IMG/VR virus record: IMGVR_UViG_2534681704_000008
Source: a virus
Taxonomy: Duplodnaviria > Heunggongvirae > Uroviricota > Caudoviricetes
DNA: 47,550 nt
Direction: 5' to 3' (one strand)
Within the stretch, counting starts at the first letter, position 1. Each line of letters begins with the position of its first letter. A program made the position numbers and the translations under genes. This document shows positions 918 through 44,304 of this stretch, piece after piece. Under the pieces are notes generated by a model. The model worked only from the letters and a program-made list of their open reading frames with translations. It had not been told where the DNA came from and did not search any database.

Positions 918-1051
918 CAGAGGGTTTATCGCGTATACGGATCGTGGATGGCAGAAAACTTTCAGAATCAGGTTTCCATTTTAAACCAGAAATTGAGTGA
1001 GTTTGCCCCATCCATGCCCCACGCGGTGAGATCGGATGTAATTAACAACAG
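918..1051 (+). pseudogene. Relic 3' end of a tyrosine integrase gene (about 45 C-terminal codons, no start)
   Basis: Translation ...QRVYRVYGSWMAENFQNQVSILNQKLSEFAPSMPHAVRSDVIN closely parallels the C-terminus of the intact integrase at 46255-47550 (...VYRVYGSWMAENNQDQVLILNQKLSEFAPSMPHAVGTDDY). Confidence 0.55.
984..1024. repeat. attL core: 41-bp direct repeat identical to 47488-47528
   Basis: aaccagaaattgagtgagtttgccccatccatgccccacgc occurs identically at both ends; flanks are homologous but diverged. Confidence 0.7.
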
Positions 1052-1185
1052 GTTACAAAACCTACACCTGCATGCTCATCATATGAGCATACATTTTTCA
1101 TAATCGACAAAGATCGTCCAAGAGCGCACCAAATAACAGATGGTTAGAGTCGTCGAAAACATCAGTCGTCTAAGTTCGCCTTAGA

Positions 1186-1222
1186 ACGAGTGCTGTTTTA
1201 TGCCCCATCCATGCCCCATCAC
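1186..1222. repeat. Degenerate third copy of the att core
   Basis: gagtgctgttttatgccccatccatgcccca shares a 17-bp identical block (gccccatccatgcccca, 1202-1218) with the att core; abuts the stop codon of the UmuD'-like gene. Confidence 0.45.
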
Positions 1223-1608
1223 ATCACCGGGCAGTCGTCGAACTCGCCAGAGCGAGCATCGTTGATGCTGTAGGTGATCACCCCAAACACCGGACGCGAT
1301 GTATCTGACACTTCGTCCTTCAAAGGTAACGGCTCCCTCCTTACATTTTCAGGGTTTTCCAGATAAGGCTGCGGATGCGTTCTGTAGCGCATGATCCTGA
1401 ACTCACCATCAACAGCGCAGACGAGCAGAGAACCGTCTTTCGGTGTTAGCGATGAATCGACGATGAGCATGGCGCCCTTCATGATTCCAGCGCGAAGGTA
1501 TGTCGCGCCAGCTATCATCATGTACGTGGCTGAAGGATGCGCGATAAGCCTCTTGTCGAGTGATATGCGATCTTCAACGTAGTCTGCTGCCGGGCTCGGG
1601 AATCCCAT
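1219..1608 (-). CDS. UmuD'-like protein (S24 peptidase fold, pre-truncated, catalytic dyad apparently substituted)
   Basis: 129 aa starting MGFPSPAADYVE, equivalent to UmuD' after Cys24-Gly25 autocleavage; aligns to UmuD through LIVDS/VDGEF/VFGV; GDSM replaced by GATY and VKKL by IMRY; GGAGGTG RBS; no in-frame start upstream before a stop. Confidence 0.7.
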   Translation of the reverse strand: MGFPSPAADYVEDRISLDKRLIAHPSATYMMIAGATYLRAGIMKGAMLIVDSSLTPKDGSLLVCAVDGEFRIMRYRTHPQPYLENPENVRREPLPLKDEVSDTSRPVFGVITYSINDARSGEFDDCPVM

Positions 1609-1625
1609 GATGCACCTCCGATGGT

Positions 1626-1645
1626 TACTGTATATGCATACAGTA
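1626..1645. promoter_or_regulatory. LexA (SOS) box in the divergent promoter region
   Basis: tactgtatatgcatacagta: perfect CTGT-N8-ACAG palindrome, 18-37 nt upstream of the UmuD'-like start codon. Confidence 0.75.
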
Positions 1646-1721
1646 TTACTGATCGGCGGTATCGATCAATAGCGTTTGTGGTGCTACACTTCAGACCTTT
1701 CCGAATTCACTGATTTCTATA

Positions 1722-2084
1722 ATGTTAAAGTTATTCGCCAAGTACACATCAATAGGCATCATCAACACGCTCATCCATTGGGTTGTGTTCGCCATATGCA
1801 TCTACGCATTCCATACTGGTCAGGCGCTTGGCAATTTTGCCGGTTTTGTTGTCGCTGTATCATTCAGCTTCTTCGCAAATGCCAGATTCACCTTTAAGTC
1901 ATCAACCACGACCCTGCGTTACATGTTGTATGTCGGATTTATGGGCACGCTAAGCGCTGCGATTGGCTGGATTGCTGATAAGTCAGGCATGGCGCCTGTA
2001 GTCACGTTAATCGTGTTCTCCGCAATCAGTCTGGTTTGCGGTTTCATTTATTCAAAATTCATTGTCTTTAGGGATGCGAAATGA
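1722..2084 (+). CDS. gtrA: GtrA bactoprenol-glucose flippase
   Basis: 120 aa, [23 protein letters not shown], four predicted TM helices; overlaps gtrB start. Confidence 0.85.
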
Positions 2085-2998
2085 AAATTTCTCTGGTCGT
2101 TCCTGTCTTCAACGAAGAAGACGCGATACCTATTTTTTATAAAACTGTTCGGGAATTTGAAGGACTTCAGCAACATGAAGTTGAGATAGTCTTCATAAAT
2201 GACGGAAGCAAAGACGCGACAGAATCAATCATAAACACGCTGGCTATTGCCGATCCGCTTATTGTTCCTCTGTCTTTCACGCGCAACTTTGGCAAGGAAT
2301 CAGCACTCTTTGCCGGCCTTGACCATGCAACTGGTGAAGCGGTTATCCCTATTGACGTTGACTTGCAAGATCCCATAGAAGTCATCCCGCACCTGATTGA
2401 GAAGTGGCAGCAGGGTTCGGATATGGTTCTGGCTAAGCGCTCTGACCGCTCAACTGATAGCCGACTGAAGCGTAAGTCAGCTGAGTGGTTTTATAAGCTT
2501 CACAACAAAATAAGCAACCCGAAAATTGAAGAGAACGTAGGCGATTTCCGGCTTATGTCTCGCGAAGTTGTTGAAAACATCAAGCTCATGCCAGAACGTA
2601 ATCTATTCATGAAAGGTATCTTGAGCTGGGTTGGCGGCAGAGCAGACGTTGTTGAATACGCTCGCGCAGAACGCGTTGCGGGAAATACAAAATTCAACGG
2701 GTGGAAACTGTGGAACCTTGCCCTTGAGGGTATAACTAGCTTCTCAACATTCCCTCTGCGCGTATGGACGTACATAGGGCTTATCGTTGCTGGCATAGCG
2801 TTTATCTACGGCGCATGGATGATCATCGATACGCTGGCATTTGGTAATGCTGTGCGCGGATATCCATCTCTACTTGTCTCCATCCTGTTCCTTGGGGGAG
2901 TGCAACTTATTGGGATTGGCGTTCTTGGTGAATATATTGGAAGAATATATATCGAGTCTAAAAAGCGACCTAAATACATTCTAAGGAAGATGAAATGA
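2081..2998 (+). CDS. gtrB: GtrB bactoprenol glucosyltransferase (GT2)
   Basis: 305 aa; N-terminal GT2 signature ([11 protein letters not shown]...DGSKD...DVDLQDP) and C-terminal TM helices. Confidence 0.9.
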
Positions 2999-4557
2999 GT
3001 TCGCGTGTTGGATTAATATCAATCTTTATTGTGTTTTTATTGGTGTTAATAATTCAATTGTTAACACCATTTCACTCTGATGATTTCGGTTTTTATCTGA
3101 AAGGGTACTCATTCGAGACCCTGCATCATGTTTACATGACGTGGAGCGGAAGGCTGTTCTCCGATTTTACTGGAAGCCTTGTAATGTCCATCAAGGACAA
3201 AACAATAATTTCATTTATAAATGCATGTGCTTTTACATCGTTAATTGTCGTTTTAACAAAGCTACCGCTTGAAAACAAAAACAACTGGCCTGTTTTTATT
3301 CTGTTGTTCATGCTTTATTGGATCGACAACCCAAGTTTGAGCCAGACAAGCTTCTGGGTAGTAGGCTCTGCTAACTATCTATGGACTAATCTCTTAGCCT
3401 ATTCATGGTTATATCTTTACTTCAGGTATGGTTCAACTTCAGATGTAAAAATGAAAGCTTTGTTATTGCTAATGGCTTTCATAACAGGCATGACAACAGA
3501 GAATCTAAGCACTTCAATATTCGGTGTTTTGTTCCTCTACAATGCCTTAAATTTCTATATAGAACGAAAAATAAACTGGTTATCTGTTTCTCAAATGCTG
3601 TTGCTGCTTGCAGGTGTTGGGGTATTACTACTTGCTCCAGGTAACTTTGTGAGGTCATCATCTTGTTGTTTTGATTTTTATTCCCAGCCTCTGATTACAA
3701 GGATAACAAATCATTTCCCCGGTAAGTTCATATCAGAAATGATGGAGTACAAGCATGTTATTGTTCTAACTGTCATTTCAATTGGTTATGGGCTATATAA
3801 AAAGAAAGATATGACGTTACCATTACTTTTTGTAATTGGTGCAATAGCTTCAAACGCCATGCTGTTCGCCTCACCAACAAATACAGGTAGAGTGTTAAAC
3901 ACGGGGTTGGTAATGATGTTGGCATCTCTTTCCTTTGCTTTGAGTTCAATATCTGAATTCAAGGCAAGTAAATTTCTAATTTATGTTGCATCTATTTTAT
4001 CTTTGGTTCTTTTTGCTCAGTCGTATGCTAACAATTACCAAAGCATAAAGAGTGTGTTTGCTCAGGATCAGATCAGAACGCAGATGATAAAAGACGGGTA
4101 TGATGCCATTCCATACTTTTATCAAGGAAGCATAGAGAAAGAATCAGATAAGCTTGACATATTTTTTAATTCAAGCGCTATTTCTAAATTTTATGGAGCA
4201 ACAAAGGATGTTGGCTTAATCGATCTTCCTTTTGATTATTCTTTGATGACGCAACAAAAGACAAATATTAATGATAGCTATTTCATTAACTTCAGGAAGC
4301 TTGACGACGTATTCCTTTTTGAAGTATCAAACCCTGATGTTAAATTTGAAAACTATATTTTGTTTTTCAGATTAACAATGGATGATGGTAGCGTTGAGAA
4401 TCATGATTTCATACCTGTTCTACGTAATTATAAAGGACATTTGTATTTGAACTCATGGAAAGTTGATACAAAAGGTAAAGAAATAAAGTTATTCGAGATT
4501 GGATTCTACGATCCGGCACTTAAGAAAAATGTAAGGTCTGTCAGCGTCCCTATGTAA
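2995..4557 (+). CDS. gtrC: GtrC-type serotype-specific O-antigen glucosyltransferase (polytopic membrane protein)
   Basis: 520 aa, many TM segments, low GC, immediately downstream of and overlapping gtrAB. Confidence 0.65.
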
Positions 4558-4565
4558 AAAAATAG

Positions 4566-4601
4566 CAGTGAGACAATTTCTTAACTGTTATTGTCTCACT
4601 G
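4566..4601. terminator. Bidirectional intrinsic terminator between gtrC and the tailspike gene
   Basis: Inverted repeat cagtgagacaat/attgtctcactg flanked by an A-run and a T-run. Confidence 0.6.
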
Positions 4602-4607
4602 TTTATA

Positions 4608-6551
4608 TTATGCACCTTTAATCATAATCCACTTCCCGCCAGATGAATCTGAAACAGTAAATACTGCTGAAGATAGAGCTGGTAAAGGGTAAGGGGTGTT
4701 TATCCCTAAACCTAATATTTGTTGACCTAACGTAGGATAAATGTTTATAGAATTAGCGGAAACATTTGCTATCTGTACACTATAACCAGTGCCAACATCA
4801 GTAGTCGATGGTAGTTTCGCTCCAGTTCCAGGGCCACTAGCATTAACAGTAACACACCCTGCTGTTACACCATATCCTGCCGCGCCAGATTGACCGCCTC
4901 CAGTTCCAGTGATTGATGCTACAGGTAAATTGCTTGCCTTAACTACTTTGCGAACAACCTGTGAATAACCACCTGAAATGGTGATGTCAATATCATCAGT
5001 ACTATGAGGAGTTCCATCAAATGCGGTTGGGGTGGTAGCGACTGAGTATCCTCTAACCCTGACGCTGTTATAACCTGCGCTATCTCCAAAATAAACTGCA
5101 TTCTGATCTTGTCCATTTGCGATAACATCTATTACCGCCCCTGAGACTCCACCAAACCCTCCACCAAATGTAATTCCTGTGGACAATGGAAGCCCAATAC
5201 CCTTGTACTCTTCACCGATGTAACATGAGATTCGTGGATTTGAACCCAGCAAAACTATATTAGAGCCAGCCCACGGATAATAAACCTTGCAAGACTCACT
5301 CAAAGTAAAGTTGTTTGCCTCTACGAATACGTTTGTATCAGCACCTTCGAAATGTGAGGTATTAAATTCATTCCCTTCGGCTGGCCTGCTTACTTTTAGC
5401 GCATATTTAGATCGTAAGTCGCTCGCACTGGTCCAGCAGTGTATTCCTGACCATCGTGCATTTCCTTTCTCTATCCAGAGACCTGAGTAAGTACTCGCAG
5501 TCTTCTGCCCTGAGCTGATGATAATAACATCATTAACCACACTATCGTGCGGCCCTGCAAATCTCCAGCCATCCTCCCCACTTTTATCGATAACAATTTT
5601 ACTGAATGAGCCTTCCATGCCACCATCAGCATTGCCTGAATCAGCCCATTCTGTTCTTAATCCGTTCTTGCCTGCGTTGATGATATTGACCTTATCGATT
5701 CTGGTTCTTGGACCATAAATAGCTATAGCAGAACCATTCGGGCTATTTGCTTTATCTGCATCAATGGAGAGGTTTTCAACAATAATTCCATCTTCACCAA
5801 GTAAAGAGTTAGTACCCCAGAGAGAATTTGAGTTAGCGCCATAGAGTAATGCGTTCACTGAACCAGCTAACAGCTTGAGTTTAGTTCTCTCCTGCCCCTG
5901 TCCTCTGATTGTTGTTTTTGAATAAAGCGTAAGCGGGCCGGTTAATGTTGTGCCAGCAGGAACTATGCACGGTTTTCCCGTTAATTTATTTTCTTCTATT
6001 GCTGCCTGAAAGTTAACAGTATCTACTGTTACACCATCACATATACAGCCCCAGCCGCGAATATCTCCCTCATCTCTCCAGCGCGCAATCTGAAGCTCAG
6101 GGTATTTTACCGCACCATCAGGATCTGATATTTGTCTACGAAGAACATCACTGACATCAACAGGCTGCCATTTCCCATCACCAGTCCCGCCAGCAGAAGA
6201 TGGGGTAGAACCTGGCGGGACACTTTTTGGTAATGTCTCCAGGTCATCCCATCGGTACCAAATATCCGTACTCTCATCCTGGAGAAGGTCTCCAGCTGAC
6301 GTCACAGTGCCGCCATCCTGGAAAGATCCCCTCAGGTTCCATCCAAGGTTGTATATCTGCTGAAGCACTAACTGCTTCAGGCCTTCAATTGTATAGTGTG
6401 CTTTGCCAAAGCGATCAATGTATTGCTGAGAAATTGTGGTGACAAACTCGTCAATTTTCGCACCACCGAATACATGATCGCGAATATCAGGGCTTGGTAC
6501 AGGGTTTTGCGTCGGAGTTGGTACCGGGATGTTTGCGTATGAATCGGCCAT
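4608..6551 (-). CDS. Tailspike / side tail fiber with beta-helix (pectate-lyase-like) domain
   Basis: 647 aa; Gly/Ser/Thr/Asn-rich beta-helix-type composition; last gene of the tail module, next to gtr. Confidence 0.65.
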   Translation of the reverse strand: MADSYANIPVPTPTQNPVPSPDIRDHVFGGAKIDEFVTTISQQYIDRFGKAHYTIEGLKQLVLQQIYNLGWNLRGSFQDGGTVTSAGDLLQDESTDIWYRWDDLETLPKSVPPGSTPSSAGGTGDGKWQPVDVSDVLRRQISDPDGAVKYPELQIARWRDEGDIRGWGCICDGVTVDTVNFQAAIEENKLTGKPCIVPAGTTLTGPLTLYSKTTIRGQGQERTKLKLLAGSVNALLYGANSNSLWGTNSLLGEDGIIVENLSIDADKANSPNGSAIAIYGPRTRIDKVNIINAGKNGLRTEWADSGNADGGMEGSFSKIVIDKSGEDGWRFAGPHDSVVNDVIIISSGQKTASTYSGLWIEKGNARWSGIHCWTSASDLRSKYALKVSRPAEGNEFNTSHFEGADTNVFVEANNFTLSESCKVYYPWAGSNIVLLGSNPRISCYIGEEYKGIGLPLSTGITFGGGFGGVSGAVIDVIANGQDQNAVYFGDSAGYNSVRVRGYSVATTPTAFDGTPHSTDDIDITISGGYSQVVRKVVKASNLPVASITGTGGGQSGAAGYGVTAGCVTVNASGPGTGAKLPSTTDVGTGYSVQIANVSANSINIYPTLGQQILGLGINTPYPLPALSSAVFTVSDSSGGKWIMIKGA

Positions 6552-25770: not shown

Positions 25771-26454
25771 TTATTTTGTTTGTTTTAATGCTTTTTTCTC
25801 AGCCGCTAAAGCGGTAATGGCGTCAATTCGTAGTTGCCTTTCATGCTTTTCAACATACCACTCTTGAATTAGAAGCTCGAGGAGGCCTATCAGCATCTCA
25901 GCTTCGTCTGGATCGACATCAACAATGACATTGATATCATTTTCCATATGAGCACCAATGTTGCCAATATTCCGAACAGCATCGATGGCTTTCCAAACAT
26001 TCGATTCAATCTGCCCCTCGATGGCTTTTATTTCGTCAACAAGTCTCGCGGGCTTAACATTCCAGACGTTCCTAATCATCCCTTGAAGACACCTGCGTGA
26101 CAAAGTTGCAGAAGCTTTAGGTGATAGATTTTTGATTAACACTGCCTCTTTATAGTCATCTAAAATCGGCTTCGGCACATAATCAGGAAACTGTTTATAA
26201 ATTCCATTTGGCCTATTAACCCACTGCTCGATTAAGTTGACCGGTCTGTAATAGCCACCTTCAAGTTTCGCAGTAGATACCTTCGATACGTATGTGAATT
26301 CTTTACATTCTTTGTTCGGGCAAACGTTGACCGAAGATTCAAAAGCCAAAACCCCGTACTTAGTGTCAGCTGCCACAGCGAAACTGTTATTTTTTTTCTC
26401 AATTGACTCGAAAACTGACAAGCGCCCACAAAAAGGGCATTCCCAAGATGACAT
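25771..26454 (-). CDS. Zinc-ribbon plus DUF4145-like (HEPN-superfamily) protein; candidate abortive-infection/defence gene
   Basis: 227 aa from MSSWECPFCG (ATG 26454, AAGGAGG RBS); CxxC...CxxxC ribbon; C-terminal AVRNIGNIGAH resembling the DUF4145/HEPN R...H signature; low GC; own AT-rich promoter and terminator. Confidence 0.55.
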   Translation of the reverse strand: MSSWECPFCGRLSVFESIEKKNNSFAVAADTKYGVLAFESSVNVCPNKECKEFTYVSKVSTAKLEGGYYRPVNLIEQWVNRPNGIYKQFPDYVPKPILDDYKEAVLIKNLSPKASATLSRRCLQGMIRNVWNVKPARLVDEIKAIEGQIESNVWKAIDAVRNIGNIGAHMENDINVIVDVDPDEAEMLIGLLELLIQEWYVEKHERQLRIDAITALAAEKKALKQTK

Positions 26455-26518
26455 GTAAACCTCCTTAGATTTAAGAAGGTTAATATATTGCAAAACATTA
26501 GAGTGTTAAACGTACAAA

Positions 26519-37195: not shown

Positions 37196-37398
37196 TTGGA
37201 ATGCACTACGGCACCGCATCAGTGCCACGCAGCGAGGTTTTACCGGGCACAATGCTGCAACACCACGGAAAAACTTATCGCGCCTCTGCGAACGTTGAGA
37301 AAGGCCTGTACGCCTTCAACATATTCGAAAAAACCATCATCAAAAGTGATTCCGTCGTTGTGCTGCTGAATGAGCGCGGCGAGCCGATGGTTCACTGA
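37192..37398 (+). CDS. Small hypothetical protein
   Basis: 68 aa, tiled in the operon. Confidence 0.45.
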   Translation: MIGMHYGTASVPRSEVLPGTMLQHHGKTYRASANVEKGLYAFNIFEKTIIKSDSVVVLLNERGEPMVH

Positions 37399-37408
37399 GG
37401 CCGCTGAT

Positions 37409-37843
37409 ATGGAAATCAAAACTCCAGCAAATCCAAGCAAAAAGGCGACGGCCAGGGTAAAGAATCCTCTTCCCGCGCCAACTAATTGTCACCTGTGCTC
37501 TGGTTCAGTGCGAATCGGCACTCATGAAGAAGTCTATGGACGCGACTTCAGTGAATGGCCGTATGTCTATCTGTGCGAATGCTGCGGAGCATACGTCGGG
37601 CTTCATCCTTTCACAGCGATACCTCTCGGGACTCTAGCAGACAAGCCAACCCGCGACGCGCGGAAGAGCTGCAAGATGCCTTTTGAACGGATCTGGAAGT
37701 CCGGAGCCATGACGCGCACTGAGGCATACCAATGGCTGGCTGGCAAGATGGGTATACCTGTTCATGAATGCCACTTCGGCTGGTTCACCGTAGAGCAGTG
37801 CCAGGCTGCAATGCATCACTGTAACGACTGGCTAAACCGCTAA
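37409..37843 (+). CDS. Cys/His-rich zinc-finger-like early protein
   Basis: 144 aa from MEIKTPANP; CHLCSG...CECCGAY...CHFGW...HHCNDW clusters. Confidence 0.5.
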   Translation: MEIKTPANPSKKATARVKNPLPAPTNCHLCSGSVRIGTHEEVYGRDFSEWPYVYLCECCGAYVGLHPFTAIPLGTLADKPTRDARKSCKMPFERIWKSGAMTRTEAYQWLAGKMGIPVHECHFGWFTVEQCQAAMHHCNDWLNR

Positions 37844-38199: not shown

Positions 38200-38217
38200 T
38201 TTTTGAGGGGATTAACG

Positions 38218-39063
38218 ATGGCAAACGAATTAACAATCACAGCGACGTCGCTTCAGGAGATAGGCGTCGACGTCTCCACCTGGAGCGCGCTGAAGAACAG
38301 CATCTACCCTGGCGCCAAAGACGAATCGGTAATGATGGCGCTTGACTACTGCAGAGCCCGCCAGCTGGATCCGTTGCTCAAACCTGTCCACCTCGTTCCG
38401 ATGTACGTCAAAGACTCGAAAACAGGTAAAGGCGACTGGCGAGACGTCGTCATGCCTGGCATCGGGCTTTACCGCATTCAGGCAGACCGTTCTGGCGATT
38501 ATGCCGGTGCCCGCGAACCAGAGTTCGGGCCCGACGTAACTCAAACGCTTACTGGTGTCGAGGTGACCTTCCCTCAGTGGTGCAAATACACCGTCTACAA
38601 GCGCATGCCCAGTGGAGAGATCGTCGAGTTCAGCGCCAAAGAATACTGGATTGAGAACTACGCCACCGGCGGACGCGACACCACGGCGCCGAACGCGATG
38701 TGGAAAAAGCGCCCATACGGACAGCTGGCGAAATGCGCGGAAGCCCAGGCTTTGCGTAAGGCATGGCCTGAGATTGGACAGCAGCCTACCGCCGAAGAAA
38801 TGGAAGGCAAATCACTGGAGGTAGATATCCGTGACGTCACGCCGCGCAACACCACAGAAGCGCTTCCACCAGCAGCAAGCGAAGAAACGCTTCAGGCGAT
38901 AACCGATCTCTTAAAAACTCTGGATAAAGACTGGGAGAAAGACTTCCTACCACTGTGCAGCGACATCTTCAAACGGCAAATTCTTGAGGCGTCAGAACTC
39001 ACTGAAGAAGAGGCTCAGAAAGGGTTTGGCTTCCTTCAGAAAAGGGCTAAGGCGGCAGCATGA
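38218..39063 (+). CDS. recT: RecT single-strand annealing recombinase
   Basis: 281 aa from MANELTIT (GAGGGG RBS); paired with the downstream exonuclease. Confidence 0.8.
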
Positions 39064-39740
39064 CACCCGAAATTATCCTGGCCCGGACCGGTATTGACGT
39101 TACCACTATCCAACAGGGCGATGAGGCGTGGCACCGGCTGCGCCTCGGCGTTATCACCGCCTCTGAAGTGCACAACGTCATCGCCAAGCCAAGATCGGGA
39201 AAGAAGTGGACAGACATGAAAATGTCCTACTTCCACACGCTGCTCGCCGAGGTATGCACCGGCGTGGCGCCAGAGGTTAACGCCAAGGCGCTGGCCTGGG
39301 GCAAGCAGTACGAGGAAGACGCCCGCACGCTCTTCGAGTTCACCACTGACGTGAAAGTCACGGAGTCTCCGATCCTGTTCCGTGACGAGAGCATGCGCAC
39401 AGCGTGCTCCCCTGACGGTCTGTGCAGTAACGGGTTCGGTCTTGAGCTTAAATGCCCTTTCACCTCTCGCGACTTCATGAAATTTCGGCTTGGCGGTTTC
39501 GAAGCCATCAAGTCTGCGTACATGGCCCAGGTGCAGTACAGCATGTGGGTGACCGGGAAAGATGCCTGGTTTTTTGCTAACTACGACCCGCGCATGAAGC
39601 GCGAAGGTATTCACCACGTCGTCGTTGAGCGGGATCCGCAATACATGACCGATTTCAACGAAATGGTGCCGGAGTTCATCGAGAAGATGGACGAGGCGCT
39701 GGCGGAGATCGGCTTCACGTTCGGGGAGCAGTGGAAATGA
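39060..39740 (+). CDS. Lambda-type 5'-3' exonuclease (YqaJ-like)
   Basis: 226 aa; ATGA overlap with recT. Confidence 0.75.
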
Positions 39741-40165
39741 AACGCACACCCTTCTATCGCCGGCCCGGGCGAACCGGGCAATTCTCCGGCCTCCGTGAGC
39801 GCGTTATCTGGATGATTCAGACGCGCGGCCGCCCGGTAACAGGCAGCGAAATCGCTGAGAAGTTTGGCGTAACGCTCATCGAGTTTAACCGGGTCGCCAA
39901 CGGCATCACCCGCGGCACCGGACAGATAGCACAGATTGTTGAGTCGGAAAAATGGCTCAACGAGGACGGCATCTGCGACCGGGCATTCGACCTGATCACG
40001 AAGCCAAAAGTAGTAACACCTCAGGGTAAATCGCGGTTGTTCACCCGGCGCGCCATAGAGCAATCGAAGGAAGGCAGACGGCAGGAGTGCATTGCCCGCG
40101 CCGCCCGCCGTAGCCGCCTGATTGCTCAGGGCCTCTACATCGACGAAATGGAGTCAGTGCTATGA
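39737..40165 (+). CDS. Hypothetical protein, possibly winged-helix
   Basis: 142 aa from MKRTPFYRR; ATGA overlap with exo stop. Confidence 0.45.
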
Positions 40166-40329
40166 AAGCGTGGTCTCTCGAAGAGCTGGCGCTGCTGTGG
40201 CGACACTCAAACGCTGAAGTCGCAGAGATTACCGGCCGCAGTATTGATGAGGTCGGAGATAAGCGGCTGCAAACCAATATTGAGCGTAATGGCTGGGATG
40301 TAAACGATCCGGAACGGGAGGATGCATGA
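40162..40329 (+). CDS. Small hypothetical protein absent from the ORF track
   Basis: 55 aa ([25 protein letters not shown]...), ATGA overlaps at both ends. Confidence 0.45.
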   Translation: MKAWSLEELALLWRHSNAEVAEITGRSIDEVGDKRLQTNIERNGWDVNDPEREDA

Positions 40330-41387
40330 GCAAAGTAGGCGATTATTTCTTTGAGTTCCCGGCGTCGCGCGGCACGCAGGGTTGTACGGTGACTTACATG
40401 ATCACAGCACCTGCCCGCGCACTGACGCGCATACTTGCCTCCGACAATCACGGCAGCACGCTCGATCGTTCTCAACGCGAAATTAACCAGGCGCGAGTGA
40501 AGAAGTTTTACCAGTACCTCGTCAATGCATACCAAAATAAAGAGCCCTTCATCATCCCGCCACTGGTCGGCAACTGCGACGCGGATATTGAGTTTGAAGA
40601 GTTCGGCAATACGAATGTGGGCGTCGCACGCTTCCCTATGGATGCAGTGATCAAGCTGTTCGACGGCCAGCACCGCGCAGCCGGATTAGCTGAGTTCTGC
40701 CGGACTTACGGAGAGCCAATCAGCATCCCGCTGATGCTAACCCATAATCTCCCACTGAAGGCACGCCAGCAGTTCTTCTCCGATATCAATAACAACGTCT
40801 CGAAACCTTCCGCTGCGATCAACATGGCCTATGACGGGCGTAATGAAGTTGCACAGGGGATGGTGACGTTCCTGTCTCAGCACGACACCTTCGCAGAGGT
40901 GACAGACTTCGAGCACAACGTCGTACCGGCGAAAAGTAAGTTGTGGGTGAGCTTCAAGGCGCTTAGCGACGCGACGGCCAAGTTTGCCAACGCGGGCGGC
41001 AAGCCGCTGGAAATGGGCGACATCGAATCCATCTGGGAGGCCTGGTTGGCCCTGACGCAGATCGAAGCGATTCGCCACGGCACCAGCCAGGCAGACTACA
41101 AGCGCGACTACATTCAGTTCCACGCAGTGATGATTAACGCCTTCGGCTATGCCGTTCAGCGGCTGATGGCTGACCACTCAATCGTAGATATCGTCCAGAT
41201 GATTGAGGAACTGGCGAGCAGTGCGGGCTCCTCTGAGATGGAAGACTTCTTCCTGATTTCCCGGTGGGGTGGTGTCTGCGTGAATGCCGAAAAAGACCGT
41301 CCAACGGTCATTGCCTCCGTTCCGGCGCAGAAATCTGCTGCAGACCGTCTCGTCAAAGTTATCCTGGCGAAAAGCCTTGAGGAGTAG
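40326..41387 (+). CDS. DGQHR-domain protein (ParB/DndB-like superfamily)
   Basis: 353 aa with an exact FDGQHRAAG motif. Confidence 0.7.
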   Translation: MSKVGDYFFEFPASRGTQGCTVTYMITAPARALTRILASDNHGSTLDRSQREINQARVKKFYQYLVNAYQNKEPFIIPPLVGNCDADIEFEEFGNTNVGVARFPMDAVIKLFDGQHRAAGLAEFCRTYGEPISIPLMLTHNLPLKARQQFFSDINNNVSKPSAAINMAYDGRNEVAQGMVTFLSQHDTFAEVTDFEHNVVPAKSKLWVSFKALSDATAKFANAGGKPLEMGDIESIWEAWLALTQIEAIRHGTSQADYKRDYIQFHAVMINAFGYAVQRLMADHSIVDIVQMIEELASSAGSSEMEDFFLISRWGGVCVNAEKDRPTVIASVPAQKSAADRLVKVILAKSLEE

Positions 41388-41389
41388 TT

Positions 41390-41845
41390 ATGACAATGCA
41401 GATGCACTCAATGCCCTGGCCTGAATCTCAGGCCATCTTTTTGTCAAAAACCTACCTTTACATGAACATGGATGAGCTGTGCAAAAGGTTACAACGCACC
41501 AAAGCGTCTATCCAGATGAAGGCCAGCAGCATGGGTCTTTACCGCTGTGGGAAATTAACCATCGACGATCTGCAGCTGATTGAAGCCCTGCTTGATGCCG
41601 GTCTTGAGCATGCGGTTATTGCCAGAAAGTTCGAACTCTCCAAGCCTCAGCTAATGAGGGTTCTGGAAACGGGAGCCTTTCATTGCGATATCTGCGGCAC
41701 GTTCTCCGCGTCTATGCGTTCCTCTTACTGGAAATTCGACGGAGAGCCGCAAAGGACTTATAGCTGCTGTCCGGAGTGTTGCCGGGCGATGGTTGAAAGC
41801 TTTAACGCAGGACACGACGGGCCGTTGCTGGCACGCAGACGGTAG
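41390..41845 (+). CDS. Hypothetical protein with C-terminal Cys-rich zinc-ribbon-like motif
   Basis: 151 aa; HCDICGTF...SCCPECC. Confidence 0.45.
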   Translation: MTMQMHSMPWPESQAIFLSKTYLYMNMDELCKRLQRTKASIQMKASSMGLYRCGKLTIDDLQLIEALLDAGLEHAVIARKFELSKPQLMRVLETGAFHCDICGTFSASMRSSYWKFDGEPQRTYSCCPECCRAMVESFNAGHDGPLLARRR

Positions 41846-41850
41846 GAGGC

Positions 41851-42510
41851 ATGACCGAAAAATACGCTCTTATCTACGCAGATCCTCCCTGGTCTTACGG
41901 CAACACCATCAGCAATGGCGCCGCTGCCGACCACTATTCCACCATGAAGCTAATCGACATCAAACGCCTGCCAGTCTGGGAACTTGCCGCCGAAAACGCT
42001 GTGCTGGCGATGTGGTACACCGGCACGCATAACCAGGAGGCGATCGAACTGGCCGAGGCCTGGGGCTTTACCGTTCGCACTATGAAAGGCTTTACCTGGG
42101 TGAAGCTGAACCAGAACGCCGAACTGCGCATCAACAAGGCGCTGGCTGAGGGTGAGGTCATCGACTTTTACGACTTCCTCGATCTGCTTAACGCCGAGAC
42201 TCGCATGAATGGCGGCAACCACACCCGGGCCAATACTGAAGACCTGCTGATAGCTACCCGCGGCGCCGGGCTGGAACGTAAGCACGCCGGGATTAAGCAG
42301 GTGGTGTACAGCCCACTCGGCGCGCACAGCGAAAAGCCGTGGGAAGTTCGGCACCGGCTGGAGCTGCTTTATGGAGATGTGCCGCGCATTGAGCTATTTA
42401 GCCGCAGCGCGGCGCCGGGCTGGGATCACTGGGGGAATCAGTGCGCCACCGCCGCGGTGGAACTGCTTCCCGGCTGCGCCATCGATGTTGTGAAAACGGA
42501 GGCCGCATGA
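41851..42510 (+). CDS. N6-adenine DNA methyltransferase, MT-A70-like
   Basis: 219 aa with the DPPW catalytic motif (YADPPWSYGN) near the N-terminus. Confidence 0.75.
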   Translation: MTEKYALIYADPPWSYGNTISNGAAADHYSTMKLIDIKRLPVWELAAENAVLAMWYTGTHNQEAIELAEAWGFTVRTMKGFTWVKLNQNAELRINKALAEGEVIDFYDFLDLLNAETRMNGGNHTRANTEDLLIATRGAGLERKHAGIKQVVYSPLGAHSEKPWEVRHRLELLYGDVPRIELFSRSAAPGWDHWGNQCATAAVELLPGCAIDVVKTEAA

Positions 42511-43556
42511 CGCCAGCAGCTTATTACAACGAAATCGACCCGTTCGCTGCTCAGTGGCTGCGTAACCTGATCGCCGGCGGTCATATCGCCCCGGGCGAAG
42601 TTGATGAAAGGAGTATTGAAGATGTCACACCTGACGATCTGCGAGGATTCACGCAGTGCCACTTCTTCGCCGGAATTGGCGTATGGTCTCATTCCCTGCG
42701 GCTCGCCGGATGGCCTGACGATAAACCAGTCTGGACCGGCTCCTGCCCGTGCCAGCCTTTCAGCGCGGCAGGCAAAGGAGATGGGTTTGCTGACGAGCGG
42801 CACCTTTGGCCCCACTTCTTCCACCTCATCAGCGAGCGCAGACCTGAGCATGTCTTTGGCGAACAGGTTGCAAGCGGTAACGCAAACACATGGTTCGACC
42901 TTGTACAAGCTGACCTGGAAGGAATGGAATACGCCTTCGGGCTTGTGCCGTTTGCGGCAGCGGGCGTCGGTGCTCCGCACATCAGAGAGCGGGCCTACTG
43001 GGTGGCCTACGCCAACAGCCAGATCGACGACCGGCGCAGGCACATCGGGGCGGATGGGAGGAATGAACATTCAGACTGCAGTAACCCTGACAGGTTGGCC
43101 GACACCCACAACGATCGACAACAATCAGGTTGCTGGCCAAGCTGCGGCTGCAAATGCACCAAAGCGGGGATCCACACTGGGCGGAGCATCAAGGCTTGCA
43201 GGATGGGTGACGCCAACCTCACGCGACTGGAAGGACTCGGCGGGAATGACTGCGCAGCGGGATGGCAAGGAGCGACTGGACCAGTTGCCTCGCCAGGCGT
43301 ACACATGCGGGCCCTTGAGGTTAACGGTTTTTGGCGAGATGCGGACTGGCTCTTTTGTAGAGATGGAAAATGGCGTCCAGTTGAACCCGGCACATTCCCG
43401 CTGGTTGATGGGGCTGCCGCGCGCCTGGTGCGAGTCGAGCCCGGGGTGGCAAGAGTGGCAAGCAGCAACCGCGTCGGCCGCCTGAAAGGGTACGGCAACG
43501 CCATAAACGCACAGGCTGCGGCTGAATTTATCCGGGCCTATATGGAGGGTTTATGA
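42507..43556 (+). CDS. DNA cytosine-5 methyltransferase (Dcm-like); reading frame possibly disrupted
   Basis: Motifs I (FFAGIGVW), IV (SCPCQPFSAAGK), VI (VFGEQV), VIII (HIRERAYW) and X-like (RLKGYGNAINAQAAAEFI) in the annotated frame; the +1 frame also looks coding in the middle. Confidence 0.6.
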   Translation: MTPAAYYNEIDPFAAQWLRNLIAGGHIAPGEVDERSIEDVTPDDLRGFTQCHFFAGIGVWSHSLRLAGWPDDKPVWTGSCPCQPFSAAGKGDGFADERHLWPHFFHLISERRPEHVFGEQVASGNANTWFDLVQADLEGMEYAFGLVPFAAAGVGAPHIRERAYWVAYANSQIDDRRRHIGADGRNEHSDCSNPDRLADTHNDRQQSGCWPSCGCKCTKAGIHTGRSIKACRMGDANLTRLEGLGGNDCAAGWQGATGPVASPGVHMRALEVNGFWRDADWLFCRDGKWRPVEPGTFPLVDGAAARLVRVEPGVARVASSNRVGRLKGYGNAINAQAAAEFIRAYMEGL

Positions 43557-43771
43557 CACCAGCAAATGAAAACGCCATCCGCGCGGCCTGCCGACGCTGC
43601 ACCGAAGAAATCCAGCAGGCCATGCGCAAGAAGCCAAAGCCTAACTGGAACGCAACGGTGCCTCCCATCATCAACAAGCATCACAAGAAAATTGAAGCTC
43701 TGGGAGTTAGCCTCCTGGAGTTCGTCGTATACACAGGGCGGCTTAATCGCCGCTTCGGAGTTGAATTGTGA
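43553..43771 (+). CDS. Hypothetical protein
   Basis: 72 aa, ATGA overlap with the methyltransferase stop. Confidence 0.45.
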   Translation: MTPANENAIRAACRRCTEEIQQAMRKKPKPNWNATVPPIINKHHKKIEALGVSLLEFVVYTGRLNRRFGVEL

Positions 43772-44304
43772 AGGTTGAAAAAAGCGATGTTCTGGCGTTT
43801 ACCATTTCAGATGTTGAACGTCTCGACCCTGTCAGGGTGATGATTGAAAACTATGAACCTGGTAAGGGTCGCATCACCATCACCTGCTTCGGTAAGGCCT
43901 GGACCGGCGCATGGTTTGCTATGGGCGGTGATACCGTGCAGGAGTTCATTAAGCACGTCAGCAATGAGTACCTTATAGGCTATTTCGACCCGCAACTGCA
44001 AAGCACGGTGGATGATGATAACGACGCCAACCTTGAATTCGTCAAAGGTGAGATCATCAAACTCCGGCGCCAGCAGGAAATCGATGCTGATGATGCCAGG
44101 GAAATGTGGGATGAGGCTGAAGATGCTGAAGATGTGAAGGCGAGCTGCTGCAACTATCTCGTCGGCGACAAGTTGCTTAACCTGCTGGGTGATGACCCAT
44201 GGTACGCAAAATGGCCGTCTGTGCCGAACCATCATTATCAGTACCTCGAACGCATCATTGATGCAGTGCGCGGTGGGCTCGCAGAACTGGAGCGTGCTGC
44301 ATGA
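43768..44304 (+). CDS. Hypothetical acidic protein
   Basis: 178 aa, tiled in the operon. Confidence 0.5.
   Translation: MKVEKSDVLAFTISDVERLDPVRVMIENYEPGKGRITITCFGKAWTGAWFAMGGDTVQEFIKHVSNEYLIGYFDPQLQSTVDDDNDANLEFVKGEIIKLRRQQEIDADDAREMWDEAEDAEDVKASCCNYLVGDKLLNLLGDDPWYAKWPSVPNHHYQYLERIIDAVRGGLAELERAA

Follow-up and report, generated by a model that had tools for sequence, protein, structure and literature searches.

We analysed a stretch of 47,550 nucleotides (the window) from a virus of the Caudoviricetes (Duplodnaviria; Heunggongvirae; Uroviricota), IMG/VR record IMGVR_UViG_2534681704_000008, which represents a lambdoid Enterobacter-type prophage with its nearest genomic relative in Enterobacter quasiroggenkampii (DGQHR proteins 97% identical). 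Four genes on its plus strand, at 40326-43556, encode in order a DGQHR-domain protein, a helix-turn-helix (HTH) protein with a zinc-ribbon-like end, an MT-A70-family adenine methylase and a C5-cytosine methylase, all translationally coupled within a long early-left operon. The slot that they occupy very probably stacks three independently exchangeable cassettes: the DGQHR gene with its HTH neighbour, the MT-A70 gene and the C5 gene. The true unit is the DGQHR protein together with a DNA-binding-type partner, and the module of a DGQHR protein and two methylases that an earlier reading of the DNA letters (the sequence-only reading) had proposed arises artefactually from the stacking of cassettes in a slot where a methylase is nearly always present. 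This leaves a widespread, uncharacterised DGQHR/HTH-zinc pair. In our explanation, which covers the cargo slot, its three cassettes, methylases that would protect the phage's own DNA and a pair that would serve in establishment or anti-defence, the parts together have a probability of about 0.5.

Three cassettes in one slot

The DGQHR gene (40326..41387, +; 353 amino acids, aa) is the first gene of an optional two-gene cassette, and the second gene encodes a 151-aa HTH-repeat protein with a C-terminal Cys4 zinc-ribbon-like motif (41390..41845, +). They are followed by an MT-A70-family N6-adenine DNA methyltransferase of 219 aa (41851..42510, +) and a C5-cytosine DNA methyltransferase of 349 aa (42507..43556, +), both orphans. 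All four genes lie on the plus strand at the positions given by the sequence-only reading.

As a control, we used 59 prophage loci that were usable when anchored on the exonuclease gene at 96% identity or more. The slot between the upstream 144-aa gene and the downstream 72-aa/TraR genes held a methylase in 58 of the 59 loci, and in 53 of the 54 that carry no DGQHR gene, while DGQHR itself was present in only 5/59. Other optional occupants of the slot were a DpdA-like transglycosylase (TGT) and a PD-(D/E)XK protein. Alignment by blastn with two relatives, L157 and L150, located the borders of the cassettes. Both match the window at 92-93% identity up to 40329, and the match picks up again at 41840-41844, in the MT-A70 gene; the relatives are contiguous across the junction at which the window holds the DGQHR and HTH/zinc genes as an insertion (40330..41843, +). 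Both also skip 42517-43552 with a clean junction and resume at 43553, and the C5 methylase is a separate insertion in the window (42517-43552, +). Because 40330-41843 and 42517-43552 are separately missing from L157 and L150, the locus consists of three cassettes. In prophages without DGQHR, moreover, the gene right after the upstream 55-aa gene is this same MT-A70 gene, at 92% DNA identity.

Since methylases are standard in the slot, the apparent system of a DGQHR protein and two methylases is mosaic cassette stacking, and the interpretation given in the sequence-only reading is only partly supported. The pairing that it drew finds no support: the methylase is kept where DGQHR is absent, and the C5 gene inserted on its own. 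The same reading had suggested a DNA-modification or anti-restriction module. This is supported for the slot, which gathers DNA-modification and anti-restriction cargo (a DpdA-like gene in relatives). The gene specifically tied to DGQHR is that of the HTH/zinc-ribbon protein and not those of the methylases.

The four genes form part of a long early-left operon of the pL type and lie 3' of the recombination genes and 5' of xis-int. At least over 39731-44301, adjacent genes overlap (ATGA or GTGA) or are 2-5 nucleotides apart, with good ribosome-binding sites; promoter prediction found no promoter-like site inside the region, and terminators none above chance. The tightly overlapping operon seen earlier is thus right in its coupled junctions and wrong as a dedicated four-gene unit, and its early location is borne out by RecT and YqaJ upstream and xis and int downstream.

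The DGQHR protein and its partner

The DGQHR protein matched the NCBIfam model TIGR03187 'DGQHR domain' (E=1e-60, 205.8 bits against a cut-off of 58.85), Pfam PF14072 (DndB; E=9.7e-47, 160 bits against 29.1) and phrog_7901 (2e-217), and PADLOC labels it DndB. The exact DGQHR pentapeptide occupies residues 113-117. D113-R117, Q50-R51 and F151..N155 (FxxxN) are invariant in 26 relatives, down to 54% identity, and the DGQHR/QR/FxxxN motifs have been defined previously (PMC4619093). Judged by profile and motif, the protein is a real member of the DGQHR/ParB superfamily, as had been claimed.

The protein probably has a ParB/Srx-fold N-terminal domain, followed by a helical C-terminal domain. Its AlphaFold2 model, which is confident (predicted local distance difference test, pLDDT, 81), has no close solved relative, and a fold search with the model returned PadC, BrxU and SspE as the best hits at marginal scores, which are weak ParB-superfamily matches. 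A sequence search of the PDB with the DGQHR profile gave no match. No HTH was detectable in the protein, and Pfam found no nuclease effector domain in it. Residues K259-[RK]-[DE]-Y-I-Q-F-H266 fit the HEPN Rx4-6H motif loosely, the R position varying between R and K.

In SspE and DpdB a motif equivalent to DGQHR is needed for nucleoside triphosphatase (NTPase) activity (PMC10164549), and a DndB-like protein binds ATP and GTP (PMC12704722). By analogy, binding and hydrolysis of ATP or GTP by the DNA-associated window protein is most likely; we predict this because all of its nucleotide-binding signature residues are intact.

The same superfamily includes the NTPase domains of type IV restriction enzymes and of phosphorothioate-sensing enzymes (PMC4619093), to which the weak fold matches also point. 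The DGQHR protein could then be a prophage defence or exclusion factor that acts on other invading DNA, like the related DUF262/GmrSD, SspE and BrxU NTPase-nucleases; the DndB label from PADLOC and the rexAB genes in a prophage with the Escherichia coli variant described below would suit such a factor. We regard this as very unlikely, as Pfam finds no nuclease effector domain, the gene has no promoter of its own and lies in an operon repressed in lysogens, and its relatives are placed in plasmid leading regions, whose transient expression on entry benefits the incoming element.

With DndB the window protein shares PF14072, the DGQHR-domain model, the DGQHR/QR/FxxxN motifs and a similar length, and it is about 26% identical to Salmonella DndB. 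It differs in scoring 117 bits against the 328-bit cut-off of the DndB equivalog model TIGR03233, and in lying in a phage early operon beside a dedicated HTH/zinc-ribbon neighbour. None of the Dnd proteins (dndC/D/E, dndA/iscS), Que proteins or PAPS-reductase domains was found when the operon and the other non-structural open reading frames (ORFs) were scanned against Pfam, and tblastn of the window with a phage DpdA-like protein gave nothing (best E=0.63), in line with the earlier statement that no Dnd or DpdA-like gene is visible. The known anti-Dnd factor JSS1_004 was considered as a phage DndB homologue and proved to be an unrelated kinase/shutoff protein. Pseudoalteromonas phage KB12-38 has two PAPS-reductase-like genes and a C5 methylase on the flanks of a DGQHR/DndB-like gene (935-5553 of its locus, L131), the only phage context we saw that hints at sulfur-type (DndC-like) chemistry.

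DndB negatively regulates dnd expression (PMC4507180), and by analogy the DGQHR protein, its HTH partner or both might set when or how strongly the downstream methylases or other early genes are expressed, or might repress a dnd-type operon of the host. The resemblance of the partner to HTH regulators is in favour of such control. Small controller proteins are also often placed upstream of the methylases in restriction-modification systems. Control of this kind is nevertheless quite unlikely, since the genes are translationally coupled in a long operon without a promoter-like site, the DndB equivalog score is far below its cut-off, and unrelated genes lie downstream of DGQHR in other loci.

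DpdB, like the window protein, is a ParB-superfamily NTPase-type protein encoded beside base-flipping DNA-modifying enzymes. However, its motif is DGQQR (PMC10164549), which makes the former label 'DpdB-like' loose, and the window holds no DpdA or DpdC. In related phages a DpdA-like gene replaces DGQHR in this slot and does not accompany it. At the position of the DGQHR gene and its partner, Klebsiella phage KO-TP1 (L003, 3575-4858) and several IMG/VR loci have a DpdA-like homologue of queuine tRNA-ribosyltransferase and a PD-(D/E)XK gene, and in those prophages the same MT-A70 and C5 methylases come next.

The 151-aa partner had no match in a Pfam scan and matched phrog_323 'D5-like transcriptional regulator' instead (6.8e-17). 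Its Cys4 pattern, C99-x2-C102 ... C126-C127-P-x-C130-C131, is invariant in 6 full-length relatives. The description 'zinc-ribbon-like' is therefore reasonable but covers the C-terminal third only, and the remainder is HTH-like. A 179-aa HTH protein, which matches Sigma70_r4_2/HTH_23, stands in for the 151-aa partner in 8 loci, and the HTH cores of the two are homologous (hhalign probability 90%). The AlphaFold2 model of the 151-aa partner was of low confidence (pLDDT 49) and too poor for a fold search; a PDB sequence search with the protein and tblastn against deposited phage genomes gave no match, and tblastn of the 179-aa cousin gave generic HTH-repeat matches only. By hhalign, the partner had no significant similarity (probability 5%) to the small protein that comes after DGQHR on a Vibrio plasmid, and this comparison therefore gives no support for a universal partner family.

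The 151-154-aa partner was seen only directly after DGQHR, in all 23 survey loci that have it. Among the exonuclease-anchored loci it was present in 5/5 with DGQHR and 0/54 without, and it also directly follows DGQHR in prophages with different recombination and integrase modules. The two form a real unit because the 151-aa protein was never seen without DGQHR. Since the DGQHR protein has no recognisable DNA-reading domain, DNA targeting is most likely supplied by the HTH/zinc partner.

Relatives in prophages and plasmids, and the role of the pair

We surveyed 121 loci that encode relatives of the DGQHR protein, calling the neighbouring genes and annotating cluster representatives. A search of the full library gave 563 related clusters (50% identity), 47 of them at E<=1e-30. 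The supplement of Samuel et al. reportedly lists a 7-member DGQHR family without comment, and our literature search turned up no account of orphan DGQHR proteins carried by phages or plasmids or of their function, and no experimental data on the inhibition of a host defence system by them.

The commonest E. coli variant has the DGQHR gene alone between Gam/DUF1317 and TraR (Gam-DUF1317-DGQHR-TraR), without a methylase. A large Klebsiella-type clade has no methylase either, and there a ParB-like protein with the N-domain and an HTH overlaps the start of DGQHR. Two such Klebsiella-type prophages encode a 261-aa ParB-like protein with a DGRQR box (L107, 5216-6001; L135, 4216-5004) that overlaps the DGQHR gene, giving two ParB-superfamily genes in tandem. 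In Vibrio phage Va_PF430-3_p42 the order is DGQHR, methylase, integrase. Chromosomal relatives adjoin PsiA, ArdB/KlcA-type antirestriction and DUF4942 genes. A Pfam scan of the N- and C-terminal extensions of longer DGQHR relatives found no domains except one fusion: the distant relative P0270 (591 aa) joins a DGQHR domain to the mismatch-binding MutS domain I.

That fusion, the place of the DGQHR gene just 3' of the recombination genes, and RdgC, Gam or DNA ligase nearby in other clades would fit an accessory of recombination or replication, namely a ParB-like binder of DNA ends, nicks or lesions working with the neighbouring RecT and exonuclease. Such a function is highly improbable: the cassette is optional in a lineage with identical recombination genes, two backbone genes separate it from them, and the plasmid homologues lie among antirestriction, psiA and ssb genes and not among recombinases.

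A search of plasmids with a relative 40% identical to the window protein found homologues on 1067 plasmids, 883 of them conjugative; these homologues are 35-40% identical to the window protein. The pOXA-48-type IncL/M plasmid NZ_CP068897.1 (L214/L222) carries the gene for a DGQHR protein of 427 aa close to oriT, in its ssb/antirestriction region. Its neighbours on IncL/M pOXA-48-type plasmids are RadC/JAB, an HTH regulator, DUF4942, Hha, DUF1380, an antirestriction gene and ssb, all of them oriented towards the mobC/mobA-relaxase region, which is some 10 kb distant, as one would expect in a leading region. Many 63.5-kb copies of pOXA-48 have the DGQHR gene split by IS1B. On Serratia plasmid pKM0260a (L221, 4992-8429) the DGQHR gene and the start of psiA overlap, hok and an antirestriction gene come next, and the position is that of psiB in F-like leading regions. 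On a Vibrio plasmid, genes for RadC and for a large ParB-N protein are found near DGQHR. The plasmid homologues lie near oriT, in the same orientation as ssb, psi and antirestriction genes, and the window protein is their phage equivalent.

Leading regions are known as anti-defence islands in which orphan methylases, Ssb and ParB homologues abound (PMC11541004, PMC7736820), and recent work has identified an establishment factor in a ParB-like protein of a leading region (PMC13370423). YfjB/HerB of F is likewise a ParB-fold nucleotide-binding protein encoded among early-entry genes (ssb, psiB/psiA, antirestriction) (PMC13370423), and DGQHR homologues have comparable positions on IncL/M and other plasmids. 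HerB differs in having a canonical CTP-binding ParB N-domain, an HTH and extra domains, whereas the DGQHR branch has no HTH and is distantly related.

We propose that the DGQHR protein and its HTH/zinc partner are a separate optional unit, expressed only with the early lytic genes, and that the pair would be an early-acting, nucleotide-dependent, DNA-associated establishment or anti-defence module for the element's own incoming or replicating DNA. It would be neither a dedicated helper of the neighbouring methylases nor a Dnd/Dpd modification function. Because the pair would be expressed with the early lytic genes and has relatives in plasmid leading regions, we tentatively favour an establishment or anti-defence role, at a little under even odds. 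A bolder form is doubtful. In it, an orphan DGQHR protein with a dedicated DNA-binding partner would be a widespread establishment or anti-defence module, a nucleotide-gated ParB-fold clamp that shields or marks incoming DNA. In this equally doubtful view the module would be shared by the early operons of prophages and by conjugative plasmids in their leading regions, those of pOXA-48-type plasmids included, with a ParB-like or HTH protein as the partner elsewhere. One possibility is that the clamp poisons homologous DUF262-type modification-dependent restriction enzymes that attack methylated phage DNA. If the pair is an establishment or anti-defence factor, it would be a new branch of ParB-fold nucleotide switches among the entry tools of phages and plasmids, and it would bear on the spread of pOXA-48-type (carbapenemase) resistance plasmids, whose homologue is often disrupted by IS1.

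Several observations weigh against this proposal. We infer the anti-defence role by guilt by association. Fold searches for the DGQHR subfamily give weak ParB-superfamily matches only, and the DNA-targeting role of the partner is drawn from weak HTH similarity and a low-confidence model. In the clade at 82% identity or more, an adenine methylase with an overlapping start follows either type of partner in 31/31 loci; with the methylase so constant, a link between partner and methylase is inseparable from the constancy of the slot. Across the survey, methylases were strongly enriched just 3' of DGQHR: of the proteins of at least 100 aa, they accounted for 61 among the 210 at positions +1 to +3 and for 7 among the 614 elsewhere, and DGQHR occurred with a methylase in 32/81 distinct architectures and in 6/14 clades (60% identity). 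The families near DGQHR, at least five, include MT-A70, phage Dam (PF05869), D12 (PF02086), N6_N4 (PF01555) and C5. This downstream enrichment leaves room for some functional link between DGQHR and methylation.

The most direct link would be a helper, in which the DGQHR protein and its HTH partner form a nucleotide-driven clamp or remodeller of DNA, which would load on phage DNA and there direct or stimulate the base-flipping methylases encoded downstream. Such a helper would correspond, in unfused form, to the ParB-methyltransferase fusions of phages and would resemble DpdB, whose ATPase is required for base exchange by DpdA and enables it without a stable complex, a precedent for assisting a DNA modifier (PMC10164549). 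The enrichment fits a helper in that methylases of five families come directly 3' of DGQHR in clades far apart (Enterobacterales, Rheinheimera, Shewanella and Vibrio phage Va_PF430-3_p42), and that stop and start codons often overlap. Fusions of a ParB-fold module with a methyltransferase (ParB_N with N6_N4 or an S-adenosylmethionine (SAM) methyltransferase) are enriched in prophages, where they too join such a module to orphan DNA methylases (PMC12704722). However, the window genes are separate ORFs with another gene between them and are separable by recombination, and methylases of the window type occur without DGQHR in most relatives. The methylase is kept in nearly all loci of the same lineage that lack DGQHR, including the same MT-A70 gene, and about 60% of the distinct DGQHR architectures, among them the commonest E. 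coli variant, have no methylase nearby. These methylase families, moreover, act alone in known cases. We therefore consider a helper function unlikely.

The two methylases and the surrounding operon

The MT-A70 protein matched PF05063 at 7e-24 (85 bits against 23.9), phrog_359 at 1e-100 and PADLOC MTase_II at 3e-53, and its catalytic DPPW is at residues 11-14. The C5 methylase matched PF00145 at 2e-13 (50.9 bits against 22) and phrog_363 at 3e-95, and its residues 74-171 align to M.HhaI 73-174 with motifs IV (PCQ), VI (EQV) and VIII (RER). Both assignments made from the sequence, an MT-A70 enzyme with DPPW and a Dcm-like C5 enzyme, were confirmed. The C5 gene almost certainly starts at the ATG at 42507, which overlaps the MT-A70 stop (ATGA) and is preceded by a ribosome-binding site, GGAGG; a start at the GTG at 42441 is unlikely. 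At the C5 N-terminus, NEID (motif II-like) at residues 8-11 precedes FFAGIG (motif I-like) at 53-58, and the first 73 residues have no alignment to M.HhaI. This unusual order, conserved in the large phage family phrog_363, suggests an enzyme with a permuted or divergent SAM-binding region.

No cognate restriction gene lies beside either methylase. Both would be ordinary orphan phage methyltransferases, made early after infection or induction, that methylate the replicating phage genome so that progeny DNA is shielded from host restriction enzymes; we predict this restriction-evasion role from the known roles of their families, orphan methyltransferases being a known anti-restriction strategy (PMC11541004, PMC7736820). 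Like orphan restriction-evasion enzymes such as the leading-region M.EcoGIX, they are stand-alone, early and without an adjacent restriction enzyme, and they differ only in the unusual N-terminal motif order of the C5 enzyme.

The lambdoid backbone of the window includes a CI-like repressor, YdaT, O, P, NinB, RusA, Q, lysis genes, a tail spike, gtrABC, RecT, the YqaJ exonuclease, xis and int. All genes of the early-left operon named here are on the plus strand. A DUF3268 zinc-finger protein (37370-37843), RecT (38203-39063) and the YqaJ-type exonuclease (39060-39740) precede two backbone genes outside the DGQHR cassette, which encode a 144-aa 'regulator' (phrog_1680; 39731-40165) and a 55-aa protein (40162-40329). 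These two (39731..40329) are coupled to DGQHR by ATGA overlaps and are also present in relatives without DGQHR. After the methylase slot comes a 72-aa backbone gene (phrog_303; 43553..43771), which is constant beside every methylase family and is not a cognate restriction enzyme. Downstream of it are genes for a 178-aa and then a 63-aa protein, a TraR/DksA-like protein (from 44578) and a dATP/dGTP pyrophosphohydrolase (PF04447; 45237-45563), followed by the excisionase (xis, from 45964) and the integrase (int, from 46255). The PF04447 family recurs 3' of DGQHR in the Klebsiella-type clade.

Elsewhere in the window, a 240-aa ORF with DUF4145 (25771-26493, minus strand) lies between the lysis and packaging genes and could be a moron or a defence-type gene. 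A gtrA/gtrB/gtrC-like cluster for O-antigen modification (1722-4557, plus strand; low GC, 36-45%) lies past the tail spike gene and has the domains GtrA_DPMS_TM, glycosyltransferase family 2 and DUF6056, and just upstream of it a SRAP (YedK-like) gene occupies 1-669 at the left edge of the window.

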